Shown here in pieces: positions 28,333 to 32,096 of a stretch of 64,000 nt of DNA. Each line of letters starts with the position of its first letter. Position 1 is the stretch's first letter. The position numbers and the translations under genes were made by a program. The stretch comes from Promethearchaeia archaeon (GTDB lineage: Archaea; Asgardarchaeota; Lokiarchaeia; Sigyniarchaeales; SOKP01): positions 416,001 to 480,000 of the forward strand of contig JAHQWK010000001.1 in assembly GCA_029856145.1 (NCBI GenBank), read 5' to 3'. The notes under the pieces were generated by a model. That model saw only the letters and a program-made list of their open reading frames with translations. It did not search any database and had not been told where the DNA came from.

Positions 28333-28950
28333 ATGAGTAAGGCAAAGAAGGAAATAAAACTATTCAATAAATGGTCTTTTTCAGAGATTCAGGTTAATGA
28401 TAGAACGCTCGAGGTTTATATTAATTTGAAACCTATTATTGTACCCCATTCAGCTGGGAGACACGAACATAAAAGATTCTGGAAAACTTCTAGAGTTTCA
28501 ATAATTGAAAGATTTACTAATAGATTACTTTCTCCTGGTTTTATCAGTGGTAAAATTAGGGGTCATAAAAGTTCTCATAATTCTGGCAAAAAATTCAAAT
28601 TATTAAGAAGTATAGAGAATGCTTTCATTTTAATCGAATTACTCACTGACCAAAACCCTATACAAATCTTAATAGATGCAATAATTAATACTGCACCTAG
28701 AGAAGAAACCACTAAAATTGCAATGGGCGGAATTAGCTATGCGTCAGCAGTGGATATTGCGCCACAGCGCCGAGTTGATTTAGGTATTAAGTATCTTGTT
28801 CAAGCAATAGGAGCTAGATCCCATTCTAATGTCAAACAGTTTGAAGAAAATCTAGCACAAGAATTAATGCTAGCAGCGAATAATAGCCAAGAATCTAGAG
28901 CTGTGAAGCGGAAGGATGAAATCGAAAGAATAGCAGTTTCTGCGAGATAA
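28333..28950 (+). CDS. rps7: 30S ribosomal protein uS7
   Basis: LFNKW, PHSAGRH, APREETT, VDIAPQRRVD, KDEIERIA.SAR. Confidence 0.97.
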   Translation: MSKAKKEIKLFNKWSFSEIQVNDRTLEVYINLKPIIVPHSAGRHEHKRFWKTSRVSIIERFTNRLLSPGFISGKIRGHKSSHNSGKKFKLLRSIENAFILIELLTDQNPIQILIDAIINTAPREETTKIAMGGISYASAVDIAPQRRVDLGIKYLVQAIGARSHSNVKQFEENLAQELMLAANNSQESRAVKRKDEIERIAVSAR

Positions 28951-29167
28951 AATTTTTTGTAAAATTATTATTTTTTAATTTAAATTTTACAAAAGGAACA
29001 AGAAAAACTTGAATATGAAATTATTTCTTTTAAAATTTGGATTAATATCACCCACATATTATCCCTATTCATTGACGGGTTAGAAAATTTCTAAATTTTT
29101 ATATATTTGAAAGTCATATTATTTAGTTAAGCAGAATTAAAGAATCAGAATAGGGTCAATAAATAAA

Positions 29168-31141
29168 GTGGATGCCGACAAAAATAATAATATTTTAGAA
29201 AAGCAACTAAAAACTTTAGGTCAGAAGGTTAGGATTGATATTCTAAAAAAGTTAAAAAACACCCTAACTCCTTTATCATTTTCAAGGCTACAAAAGGAGG
29301 TTTTAATAAATGATCTTTCATCTGTGAATTTGTCTTTTCATTTAAACACATTAAAAAAAAGTGAATTAGTATATTCTTCTGATGAGGGTTATTCAATTAC
29401 ATATTTAGGGGAGCAGATTATAGATAAAATTTTATCTATTGAACAAATTCTAAACAAGCAAAATCAATCAAGAATGATCCGAACTTCAAAATATTCAAAG
29501 GAACTTTTTGACGCTAGTAAAATTGAGGAATACTTAGTTACTGAGGGTGAATTGGAGCGTTTTTTAGCTAGACAAATTGCTCGTGAAGTAGAAGAACGTC
29601 TTTCTAAAACTAATATAGAATATATGACTGCTCCTTTAATGCGAGAATATATTAATGCAATTTTATTAGAAAATGGTTTAGAAGAAGTAAGACATAAATT
29701 AACTCGATTAGGAACTCCTCCTTTTGAAGTATCTAAATTGTTTGAATCCAATAATGATCGGATAAACCCTGAAATATTTATTGAAAAATTAGGTTCTGAC
29801 GTTTCTGAGCAATTTCTACTTCTAAATCTTATACCTAAAAATTTAGCTGATTTATATTTATCTGGGGAAATTGCTCTTTTACATTTAAATTACTGGGCTT
29901 TAAGGCCTTTAAGTCTCTATATAAATACAAAAACAATAATGGATTATCTTTTCAAGAAACACAGCAATCTTAAACATAATATAGAGAAAGATATAAATCA
30001 TTCAGAACTGATTATTCAATTCTTAGATCTTTTATATGTTCTAAGACAATTTTATTCTGAAGATTTACTTTTAGGAAATTTTAACAATCAATTCCTTTCT
30101 TCATTTTCGTTGCCGAAAGCAATTTCCTCTGACTTCCCTTTATTTACTTCTCAAATTCTTAGATATAATAATTTTTTTAACAAGACAAAACCTTCTTTAA
30201 CACTTGAATTTAATTATAATGGGAGATCTTCAAATCAGAGCCTTATCGATGAAGCTTTTCTTAATTCATTAGATACAAGATGTGGAGAGCTTGTTAAACC
30301 TTTATTATTATTTGAATATTCAACGTTTTTTCCGTTAGGGCCAAAAAATAATATTATATATAATCTATTAGTTAATAATTTGAAAAATAATGTTATTCTC
30401 TACAATAAAACTTATTCAAATTTAATTAATTCAACTATAATTCAGATACCAAACCCTCAAAAAAATCAAGTCATATTAGATAAGATTTTAGTTAATTTAC
30501 CTATGATTTCAGTTGAAGCAAAGCAAAATGACGAAAAGTTTTTGGAATTATTATATGACAAATTAAGTTCCGTTTTTGAATTGTTTGATTATAAAGAGAA
30601 ATTAGTGCAGAAGAAATTAGATTCACTTAAGGAATGGAATTCCATTATATCAAATATTTTCAACAATAATAAAAAGACTATATTCAAAAATGCTCTAAAA
30701 TCAATTAGTTTTTTCGGTTTTAATGAAGCTGTTTTAAATCACTGTGGAATTGAACTTGATAGAACAGAAAATAGTGAATCTTTTGCTTTAAAAATACTAT
30801 CTTTAATGAAAAAGACTATAGAAGAAAAAAACAACACAAATGGCAACAACTTTGTTTTAAGCCAACCTCATTATGATTCTTATTTGCAAGACTCTTGGCA
30901 TAACGGTATAACACAATCCAACCAAAAGATAAAGGGTTATTCCTCAAGTTTGATAAGAGATGAGTCAAATCTTTCCCTTAATAAAAAAATCGCATTATTT
31001 AAAAAATTTCAAAAAATTATAGATAAAGGGACTTTATTTACAGTAAAAATAAACAAAGAAGAAATTAAATTACAAAAGTTTCTAAAAACTATAATTGAAT
31101 CCAAAATAGGTGCGATCTCCTTAAGAGATTGCATACCCTAA
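29168..31141 (+). CDS. wHTH + ATP-cone + degenerate class III RNR (NrdD)-like protein
   Basis: ArsR-like HTH (R.dIL..L, lSFsrL, LSFHL..L....Lv, Y.IT..G); ATP cone (IRTS...FD..KI...L..E, APLMRE..N..LLE.G, TRLG); NrdD-like body with no C-terminal RxxGY glycyl loop. Confidence 0.75.
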   Translation: MDADKNNNILEKQLKTLGQKVRIDILKKLKNTLTPLSFSRLQKEVLINDLSSVNLSFHLNTLKKSELVYSSDEGYSITYLGEQIIDKILSIEQILNKQNQSRMIRTSKYSKELFDASKIEEYLVTEGELERFLARQIAREVEERLSKTNIEYMTAPLMREYINAILLENGLEEVRHKLTRLGTPPFEVSKLFESNNDRINPEIFIEKLGSDVSEQFLLLNLIPKNLADLYLSGEIALLHLNYWALRPLSLYINTKTIMDYLFKKHSNLKHNIEKDINHSELIIQFLDLLYVLRQFYSEDLLLGNFNNQFLSSFSLPKAISSDFPLFTSQILRYNNFFNKTKPSLTLEFNYNGRSSNQSLIDEAFLNSLDTRCGELVKPLLLFEYSTFFPLGPKNNIIYNLLVNNLKNNVILYNKTYSNLINSTIIQIPNPQKNQVILDKILVNLPMISVEAKQNDEKFLELLYDKLSSVFELFDYKEKLVQKKLDSLKEWNSIISNIFNNNKKTIFKNALKSISFFGFNEAVLNHCGIELDRTENSESFALKILSLMKKTIEEKNNTNGNNFVLSQPHYDSYLQDSWHNGITQSNQKIKGYSSSLIRDESNLSLNKKIALFKKFQKIIDKGTLFTVKINKEEIKLQKFLKTIIESKIGAISLRDCIP

Positions 31142-31178: not shown

Positions 31179-32096
31179 TTATTTAGTCATCAATTCAGCT
31201 AAGAGCGCTTTCCTCATTGGGATTCCATAATAAGTTTGCCTAAAGTAAATTGCTTTTTCTGAACTATCAACATCAGGAGAAATTTCTGTAATTCTTGGAA
31301 GCGGATGTAATAATCTAAAGTTATCTTTTGTATCCTTAAGATCCTCTTGTCGAAATACGTAAAATCCTTTAATTCTTTCATATTCTTCCAAATCAACAAA
31401 TCTTTCCTTTTGGATTCGTGTCATATAAAGAACATCTAAAATATTTAGTATTTTCCTATAATCCTTAATTTCTTTATATTTAACCTGTCGTTGTTGTAGA
31501 AAATCTTTGTCCCGATTTCTCATTCTCAATTCCTTAGGACTTATGAAATAAATATTCATATCGAAATTTGATAAAAGAATTGAAAGGGAATGAACTGTCC
31601 TTCCATACTTAAGATCTCCCATCAGACCTATATTCAATCCATCTAATGAACCAATTTCCTCAGTAATTGTTAACAGATCTAATAAAGCTTGAGTTGGATG
31701 TTCTCCGCTTCCAGAACCAGCATTAATTATCGGAACCTTAGAAAATTTTGATGCCATTCGAGCAGCTCCTTCAAGTGAATGCCTCATAACTATGCAATCA
31801 CTATAGTTTTCAACAGTTCTTATTGTGTCTGCAATGCTTTCTCCTTTTTTTATAGAAGAAACATCTCCAGAATGAAATCCAATTACATTCCCTCCTAATC
31901 TATACATAGCAGATTCAAAACTAAGACGAGTACGAGTAGATGGTTCAAAAAATAATGTAGCTAAGATTTTTCCTTGAAGAAGATTTGAATTCTTGATTTC
32001 ATTCATTTCTTTGCCTTTCCTTAATATATATTCAATATCTTCTCTATCAAATTGCTTAGCACTTATAATTCCTTCACTAAATTTATCCTTAAACAT
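31179..32096 (-). CDS. pyrB: Aspartate carbamoyltransferase catalytic subunit
   Basis: FFEPSTRTRLSF, HPTQALLD, GDLKYGRTVHSL, TRIQKERF, HPLPR. Confidence 0.97.
   Translation of the reverse strand: MFKDKFSEGIISAKQFDREDIEYILRKGKEMNEIKNSNLLQGKILATLFFEPSTRTRLSFESAMYRLGGNVIGFHSGDVSSIKKGESIADTIRTVENYSDCIVMRHSLEGAARMASKFSKVPIINAGSGSGEHPTQALLDLLTITEEIGSLDGLNIGLMGDLKYGRTVHSLSILLSNFDMNIYFISPKELRMRNRDKDFLQQRQVKYKEIKDYRKILNILDVLYMTRIQKERFVDLEEYERIKGFYVFRQEDLKDTKDNFRLLHPLPRITEISPDVDSSEKAIYFRQTYYGIPMRKALLAELMTK

Follow-up and report, generated by a model that had tools for sequence, protein, structure and literature searches.

A winged-helix protein built on a catalytically dead ribonucleotide reductase core as a candidate nucleotide-sensing regulator in Asgard archaea

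Domain architecture and loss of the active site

The stretch of DNA considered here (referred to as the window) covers 64,000 nucleotides from a Promethearchaeia archaeon (contig JAHQWK010000001.1, positions 416,001 to 480,000 of the forward strand). At positions 29168..31141 of its forward strand the window harbors a single open frame with a GTG start, which encodes a 657-residue protein composed of an N-terminal winged helix-turn-helix (wHTH) domain, an ATP-cone and a core related to that of class III ribonucleotide reductases (RNRs; the class III enzyme is also named NrdD). The protein is a 100% match to one database cluster, and its orthologues display 45−80% identity. The gene is found downstream of rps7 (28333..28950, forward strand), which is the final gene of an rpoA-L30e-nusA-rps12-rps7 cluster, and is convergent with pyrB (31179..32096, reverse strand), which encodes the catalytic chain of aspartate carbamoyltransferase (ATCase; TIGR00670, 369 bits, cut-off 237). 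An earlier interpretation made from the letters alone (referred to as the sequence-only reading) had placed the gene in this setting, which the neighbors and the pyrB match confirm, and had proposed that the protein is a pseudo-enzyme that acts as an archaeal analogue of the bacterial repressor NrdR.

The wHTH domain (29207..29431, forward strand; residues 14−88) is of the DUF7347, ArsR-like type. Its Pfam match (PF24038, E = 9e-12) reaches 45.5 bits, i.e., above the gathering cut-off of 27.6, and weak Pfam matches to HTH_20 and HTH_45 are also found at the N-terminus. DUF7347 is matched by all 18 of 18 diverse members of the wHTH-NrdD family, and an AlphaFold2 model of the domain displays three helices and a beta hairpin with a predicted local distance difference test (pLDDT) score of ~85. 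These data bear out the ArsR-like domain noted in the sequence-only reading.

The ATP-cone (29474..29689, forward strand; residues 103−174; PF03477, hhalign) begins directly after the DNA-binding domain according to both Pfam and hhalign, which is the order also found in NrdR, and is the best-conserved part of the protein. The PF03477 match of the protein is weak (E = 0.004; 18.1 bits, cut-off 25.8), 9 of the 18 diverse family members yield E ≤ 0.01 (best value 1e-7), and in the hhalign profile-profile alignment the cone covers that of true Asgard NrdDs with high confidence. Residues R105, T106, E112, K118 and I119 are invariant in the family and occupy the positions of the N-terminal hairpin and the K-I motif of the cone, the ligand roles of which we take to be those of the corresponding positions in E. 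coli NrdA. The cone had been described as well conserved; this is the case within the family, where the mean pairwise identity of the cone is 83%, but does not extend to the Pfam model.

The remainder of the protein (29711..31138, forward strand; residues ~182−657) is a class III RNR alpha/beta-barrel core that is devoid of the catalytic residues and of the glycyl-radical domain. Pfam NRDD (PF13597) is matched above its cut-off at residues 441−647 (profile positions 283−499 of 562, E = 7e-16), and the NCBIfam NrdD equivalog model TIGR02487 yields 50.1 bits at a cut-off of 326. When the PDB was searched by sequence, neither the protein nor the family profile retrieved a significant NrdD match, and the link to solved NrdDs required a fold search and a two-step profile alignment. 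The AlphaFold2 model, obtained from 30 family members (mean pLDDT 76.6, predicted template modeling (pTM) score 0.71), is confident in the body, and the top ranks of the Foldseek search are occupied by class III RNRs, those of S. thermophilus, T. maritima, P. copri and phage T4 (E = 5e-15 to 1e-9). Alignment of the model to P. copri NrdD (8p27_A) using VIA-align pairs model residues 182−657 with chain residues 120−675 (Z = 30.7; 434 residues aligned at a root-mean-square deviation of 3.4 Å), and VIA-align, Foldseek and hhalign all identify the 10-stranded alpha/beta barrel core of RNRs and glycyl-radical enzymes. In P. copri NrdD the core comprises residues 123−671, and the glycyl-radical domain comprises residues 676−739 (PMC11226230). 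Because the structural match stops at P. copri residue 675, the end of the model coincides exactly with the start of the glycyl-radical domain. In other words, the protein stops after the last core strand and harbors neither the CxxC..CxxC zinc (Zn) site nor the RxxGY loop, the absence of which the sequence-only reading had already pointed out.

Individual residues were mapped in two steps, where a profile of true Asgard NrdDs (A3) was aligned with solved structures and the profile of the family (A1) was aligned with A3. The comparison of A3 with the P. copri and T. maritima structures showed that the first-strand Cys corresponds to the Cys of the "RPFC" segment and T. maritima C330 to the second Cys of "CCR", that the radical Gly resides in "RITGY" and that the two CxxC motifs match the Zn site. 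The roles of these residues are described for P. copri NrdD (PcNrdD), in which the thiyl Cys is found at the tip of the finger loop (C416) and the second catalytic Cys is C171, while HxHD is the substrate-triphosphate motif and NxN is found in the flap (PMC11226230).

In the alignment of A1 with A3 (hhalign, probability 99.7%, E = 1e-25), the position of the first-strand (beta-1) Cys is occupied by Ser249 in "LRPLSLY", where the true NrdD of the host genome reads "LRPFCQEWD". This profile-profile placement substantiates the missing Cys that had been noted in the segment HLNYWALRPLSL. The position of the thiyl Cys, i.e., that of the second Cys of "CCR", is occupied by Tyr416; the finger-loop window contains a Cys in no family member of the wider alignment, and the tip of the modeled hairpin (residues 421−425) reads N-S-T-I-I. 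Of the HxHD motif, the HVH of true Asgard NrdD is aligned with A-L-L in the dead protein, the NxN flap ("ENANQ" in true NrdD) falls within a five-residue deletion, and the alignment ends ~90 residues short of the C-terminus of the true enzyme.

On the basis of these placements, the protein has retained none of the six hallmarks of an active NrdD, which are the beta-1 and thiyl Cys, the HxHD motif, the NxN flap, the Zn site and RxxGY. As judged from the alignments, it is settled that the 657-residue protein is catalytically dead as an RNR. A mapping of this type, using HHpred or AlphaFold, had been proposed as a check of the sequence-only reading; run with hhalign and AlphaFold2, it found neither an intact catalytic Cys nor a glycyl loop, and the loss extends to the HxHD motif and the NxN flap. 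The fold match together with the catalytic loss thus agrees with the degenerate class III RNR body of a pseudo-enzyme.

The architecture is shared by at least 486 database proteins of 650−665 residues, which are 55−80% identical and of which most named homologues carry the label "anaerobic ribonucleoside-triphosphate reductase". Among 301 genomes of the phylum, an intact frame of ~660 residues was found in 64 of the 68 sampled genomes of the host's GTDB family, one per genome, and all ~660-residue orthologues share the dead architecture. Other Asgard families harbor relatives of 710−780 residues with the same wHTH domain and ATP-cone, in which both Cys are also absent; several of these distant forms retain the CxxC..CxxC Zn ribbon, a few retain a remnant of R-x-x-G-x-Y, and others are without the C-terminal domain. 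A search of genome contigs for related loci yielded, among the best 80 loci, nearly exclusively entries titled as Asgard (Promethearchaeota-type) metagenome-assembled genomes or as "uncultured archaeon".

In a profile search of 1.84 billion representatives, 3891 relatives were identified, and a wHTH domain is found at the start of more than 100 clusters (at 50% identity). None of these wHTH-bearing clusters combines both Cys with a canonical RxxGY, and matches that possess every catalytic feature start after the wHTH domain, i.e., they are true NrdDs. Because no wHTH cluster joins both Cys and RxxGY, the clade looks like a wHTH-NrdD fusion in which catalysis was lost early and the radical domain was lost repeatedly.

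Conservation varies strongly along the protein. The mean pairwise identity within the family is highest in the ATP-cone (60% also over the entire wHTH clade), followed by the linker and N-terminal body (81%), the wHTH domain (72%), the C-terminal body (60%) and the middle of the barrel (39%). This gradient indicates that selection acts most strongly on the sensor and on the DNA-binding head, and least at the former active site. By the same comparisons, the gene represents a conserved family under purifying selection and not a decayed copy; active full-length orthologues, which would have been difficult to reconcile with a pseudo-enzyme, were not found among the ~660-residue forms. The database name and the above-threshold match to PF13597 would be compatible with an enzyme that has acquired an altered chemistry, or with a decaying pseudogene. 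Given the absence in the alignment of all six catalytic and substrate-binding features, the intact frames in 64 of 68 genomes and the domain-specific conservation, such an explanation is extremely improbable. Full-text searches of the literature found no description of the wHTH-ATP-cone-dead-NrdD family, nor of the role proposed for it below; a Tn7 preprint mentions Asgard nrdD solely as an attachment site.

RNR genes of the host genome and a shared nine-base site

The host assembly (GCA_029856145.1; 3.55 Mb, 97% complete) harbors working RNR genes outside this locus, which the sequence-only reading had suggested should be sought. A true NrdD of 711 residues (TIGR02487, 440 bits) displays both Cys, the Zn site and the sequence "RVTGYY", and an adenosylcobalamin-dependent class II RNR (RTPR) is identified by TIGR02505 (414 bits). 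No NrdR was found in the genome, as the only four ATP-cones detected all reside in RNR-type proteins, namely the window gene product, the true NrdD, the class II RNR and a second dead NrdD (see below). As had been noted, no gene for the activase NrdG adjoins the dead NrdD gene in the window; radical-SAM candidates are present elsewhere in the genome.

The window gene carries at codons 3−6 (29175..29183, forward strand; nucleotides +8 to +16 of the gene) the nine-base sequence CCGACAAAA, extended form ATGCCGACAAAAAT, which is a candidate operator. Of 73 species-level orthologues, the proteins of which are 45−79% identical, 70 carry the sequence without a mismatch. Residue 3 varies between Ser, Ala, Thr and Pro, yet codon 3 is NCC in 70 of 73 orthologues and ends with C in all 73, where C-ending codons constitute 12% of the four-fold codons elsewhere in the same genes. 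Similarly, the codon for Asp4 is always GAC, which accounts for 18% of the Asp codons in these genes. In a subset of relatives (L104, L107, G008, G171 and G216; L024−L026 and relatives), the motif is followed by an in-frame TAA, and translation has to begin at an ATG further downstream (M-L-E-K), i.e., CCGACAAAA is retained in a 5′ leader in which it is non-coding. Because the motif persists where it is non-coding, the comparison indicates that the constraint at CCGACAAAA is on the nucleic acid.

The same sequence is found in the leaders of the true nrdD genes, on the sense strand in 12 of 12 family genomes and often as ATGCCGACAAAAAT, within upstream regions that are otherwise poorly conserved between genera. 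At 10 non-redundant loci the nrdD site is located 58−117 nucleotides before the start codon (83−88 nucleotides in 7 of the 10), and it is found 71 or 79 nucleotides downstream of a TTTTATAT TATA box. In the window, a TATA-like box, TTTTTATAT (29096..29104, forward strand), is located 79 nucleotides upstream of the site, and a box at −77 to −79 from the site is found in 23 of 28 upstream regions of orthologues of the window gene. Because the distance from the TATA box to the site is alike at the two genes, the site would in both cases follow the predicted transcription start by ~45−55 nucleotides. Of the regions upstream of the class II RNR gene in 22 relatives, 8 carry CGAC[G]AAAA on the sense strand, compared to one on the antisense strand; the variant in the host genome is CCCGACGAAAAAC, ~240 nucleotides before the start.

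In a genome of a sister family (G165), pairs of inverted CCGACA half-sites are found upstream of both the wHTH gene and the true nrdD (L044:4290−4380, L180), i.e., TTTGTCGGAA ... TTCCGACAAAAG before the wHTH gene and TGTGTCGGTAA ... TCACCGACATA before nrdD. In the host's family, an inverted partner was found at only 2 of 77 sites. In two genomes that are without the wHTH protein, the site was not found before nrdD. A search for palindromes or blocks that the promoter of the dead-NrdD gene has in common with the regions preceding nrdD, the class II RNR gene, the second dead NrdD gene and pyrB was uninformative. In place of the shared upstream palindromes proposed as a check of the sequence-only reading, the comparison within the host's family yielded a single, oriented, non-palindromic 9-mer.

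A candidate NrdR-like regulator

The interpretation that we favor, with moderate confidence, is that the protein is a one-component, nucleotide-sensing, NrdR-like regulator of the RNR genes and of its own gene, which acts via CCGACAAAA. The alpha chain of a class III RNR, stripped of its chemistry, would here constitute a scaffold, probably for dimerization, that joins the ATP-cone to the N-terminal wHTH domain. The cone would read the balance of ATP and dATP, and deoxyribonucleoside triphosphates (dNTPs) may be sensed by what remains of the specificity site. The nucleotide state would set the conformation or the oligomeric state of the protein and thereby the affinity of the wHTH domain for CCGACAAAA, which, when occupied, would block transcription as a roadblock located past the transcription start. 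The outcome would be a dATP-dependent feedback on dNTP synthesis combined with autoregulation, i.e., the job of bacterial NrdR would be performed by an unrelated architecture. The archaeal NrdR analogue suggested in the sequence-only reading has thus gained comparative support from the presence of CCGACAAAA at the start of the gene itself and in the nrdD leader, from the variant at the class II RNR gene and from the missing NrdR, while binding of the protein to CCGACAAAA, binding and sensing of nucleotides, the sign of the regulation and the roadblock mechanism are still what we infer. A more far-reaching version, to which we assign an even chance, is that the protein is an Asgard stand-in for NrdR made from a reductase, the wHTH domain of which binds the oriented CCGACAAAA ~50 nucleotides past the start at its own gene and at both RNR genes, and that the clade records, step by step, how a fusion that still had a Zn ribbon and a remnant of the Gly loop was turned into a pure regulator.

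NrdR is a bacterial, RNR-specific repressor composed of a Zn ribbon and an ATP-cone (PMC9110341, PMC12176259), and it is rare in archaea (PMC9110341). The Asgard protein resembles NrdR in that a DNA-binding domain is located N-terminal to the ATP-cone and in that the predicted targets are RNR genes and its own gene. Furthermore, the host genome harbors several RNR classes, and sensing of ATP and dATP to throttle dNTP synthesis would match the function of NrdR. In contrast, the N-terminal Zn ribbon of NrdR, with two CxxC, has its counterpart in a DUF7347 winged helix, and the Asgard protein carries a dead RNR core of ~475 residues, which NrdR does not have. The candidate site, a single oriented 9-mer ~50 nucleotides past the start, also differs from the two partially palindromic 16-bp boxes that NrdR occupies over the promoter. 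The two proteins share no common ancestry beyond the ATP-cone.

With class III NrdDs (P. copri, 8P27 and 8P23; S. thermophilus, 9D3X; T. maritima, 4COI and 4U3E; phage T4, 1H78) the protein shares the 10-stranded alpha/beta barrel core (VIA-align Z = 26−31) and the ATP-cone, and its ancestor was clearly an archaeal NrdD with an "RT[ES]G"-type ATP-cone. The protein differs from these enzymes by the additional wHTH domain and by the loss of NxN, HxHD, both Cys, the glycyl-radical domain and the Zn site. An enzyme fold coupled to a DNA-binding domain is also found in enzyme-derived transcription regulators, i.e., trigger enzymes and pseudo-enzyme regulators (e.g., PutA, BirA and NadR), most of which keep their catalysis. 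Common to these systems and the Asgard protein would be the principle that genes of a pathway are controlled by the pool of one of its metabolites, but in the Asgard protein catalysis has been lost altogether, and the sensor would be the former allosteric domain of the enzyme.

Little is known about how the dNTP supply is controlled in archaea, in which NrdR is rare. If the proposed regulator is correct, the closest prokaryotic relatives of eukaryotes gain a dedicated nucleotide-sensing RNR switch with a testable operator, and the family would be a clean case of an enzyme that became a transcription factor by retaining its allosteric module alone. The hundreds of proteins annotated as anaerobic RNRs also inflate the anaerobic dNTP synthesis inferred in metabolic reconstructions of Asgard archaea, and for those sister-family genomes that display only the dead copy and no detected true NrdD, the label would mislead such reconstructions.

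A number of observations weigh against the proposed regulator. Of the 22 upstream regions of class II RNR genes, 14 are without a sense-strand site within 420 nucleotides, and no such 9-mer was found at distant wHTH relatives (G012, G038, G007 and others). Across the genome, CCGACAAAA is not enriched (18 observed, 18.8 expected), for which reason the support for the site rests on conservation across genomes and not on enrichment. About five other intergenic copies precede genes for GyrI-like, acyl-CoA-synthetase-like, small wHTH and unknown proteins, and another factor could bind CCGACAAAA. The ATP-cone falls under the Pfam threshold, and Thr, not Arg, occupies the second of its phosphate-binding positions, as is also the case in true Asgard NrdDs. 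In addition, the conserved adjacency to pyrB (see below) is left unexplained by a regulon that comprises only RNR genes. Finally, in the host's family the site is single, non-palindromic, always on the sense strand and located within the transcribed leader, which is unusual for a dimeric wHTH protein and fits an RNA element.

This last point raises the question of whether CCGACAAAA acts in the mRNA leader, where it would be read by the wHTH protein, via its winged helix, or by another factor and would control translation or stability. In its own mRNA, CCGACAAAA overlaps codons 3−6, i.e., it lies within the initiation footprint of the ribosome, and the sites in the family are found downstream of a TATA-like box and, at nrdD, at a nearly fixed distance from the start codon. 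However, the inverted CCGACA pairs before the wHTH gene and nrdD in G165 suit a double-stranded operator of a dimer, and ArsR-like wHTH domains generally bind DNA. We therefore consider control at the RNA level to be distinctly unlikely.

The conservation of the segment that follows the ATP-cone (81%), which in NrdD contributes the dimer and specificity-site helices, is also of interest from another perspective. The protein could be a non-catalytic partner or allosteric subunit of true NrdD, with which it would form a heterodimer via the retained interface, and the wHTH domain would then mediate protein contacts or act as a tether to DNA. In one genome (G007) the true nrdD is convergent with, and adjoins, the wHTH gene. 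On the other hand, a PF13597 search of four sister-family genomes identified no true NrdD. In G213 (closed, 4.36 Mb), G089 and G285 the sole match was weak and located within the wHTH gene, and in G094 nothing was matched. The absence of a detected true NrdD from these four genomes argues against an obligate partnership with NrdD, and the wHTH domain itself is under purifying selection. A role as a partner of NrdD is consequently very unlikely in comparison with that of a regulator of RNR genes.

Conserved neighbors and further reductase-type proteins

Upstream of the window gene and on the same strand are found the genes for rpoA1, rpoA2, L30e, NusA, S12 and S7, and beyond the convergent pyrB lies that for L44e. 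The gene is present in all 29 of 29 family loci examined, where it is followed by pyrB in 28 and by L44e in 27 of the 29 loci, and rps12-rps7 is located upstream in every family locus whose 1.5-kb flank reaches that far. In more distant loci, pyrB is adjacent in 6 of 9 cases and in three arrangements. It is convergent with the wHTH gene in G012 and G029, while in G285 and G007 (L041, L042) it is located upstream on the same strand at gaps of 9−15 nucleotides, such that the pair looks operonic; in G213 and G237 the two genes are on the same strand but further apart. The recurrent adjacency hints at a link to pyrimidine synthesis.

The promoter region of the gene contains two further conserved elements, which were identified upon alignment by eye of 28 upstream regions. 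The block CATATTATTTAGTTAAGCAG (29115..29134, forward strand) surrounds the predicted transcription start, and the block CACCCACATATTATC (29049..29063, forward strand) is located at about −125 from the start codon. Both contain CATATTAT and are conserved across genera; a genome scan gave no informative second copy of either block.

In view of these data, an additional explanation has to be considered, in which the protein is a DNA-binding nucleotide sensor with other targets, e.g., pyrB and pyrimidine synthesis, while CCGACAAAA belongs to another regulator and the gene is merely a member of an RNR regulon. The pyrB adjacency, seen in at least five Asgard families and in three arrangements including the short gaps in G285 and G007, would be accounted for, as might the strongly conserved promoter blocks, which are otherwise unexplained. 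Near pyrB in the host genome, however, neither CCGACAAAA nor a shared block was found. Moreover, CCGACAAAA and the ~660-residue form of the protein co-occur in the same lineages, and the half-sites in G165 accompany a divergent wHTH domain. Other targets in place of the RNR genes thus appear unlikely, and control of the RNR genes and of its own gene is the function that we continue to favor.

In many archaea pyrI, which encodes the regulatory chain of ATCase, usually adjoins pyrB. The possibility that the dead NrdD is a stand-in for this chain, as suggested by a pyrB without an adjacent pyrI, was rejected because pyrI is found on a separate contig of the host genome (G000 contig C20:98517−98792).

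The host genome also harbors, outside the window, a second dead NrdD of 600 residues (G000 contig C13:89917−91719; L002:1180−2982), composed of an ATP-cone and an NrdD core. As in the 657-residue protein, both Cys, the Zn site and the Gly loop are lost, with a replacement of Cys by Ser. The second protein differs in that it has no wHTH domain and is much closer to true NrdD, with a TIGR02487 score of 233 bits (under the cut-off of 326) compared to 50 bits for the 657-residue protein. CCGACAAAA was not found upstream of this gene, the orthologues of which (600−640 residues) are present in at least 16 of the 41 family genomes considered. In another genome (G112, L048), an NrdD-like frame of 739 residues, also without a helix-turn-helix domain, keeps the Zn site, while its radical loop reads "RISTY" (Gly to Ser) and the first-strand Cys is absent; this protein may represent another, independent inactivation.

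Several relatives display unusually long RNR frames, i.e., NrdD frames of 1658−1687 residues (G309, G168) and class II RNR frames of 1072−1666 residues (G144, G030, G019 and others), and the sequence library also contains NrdDs of 1150−1700 residues. The long frames, in which the RNR match is found in far-apart pieces, suggest that inteins are present in working RNR genes of several of these relatives.

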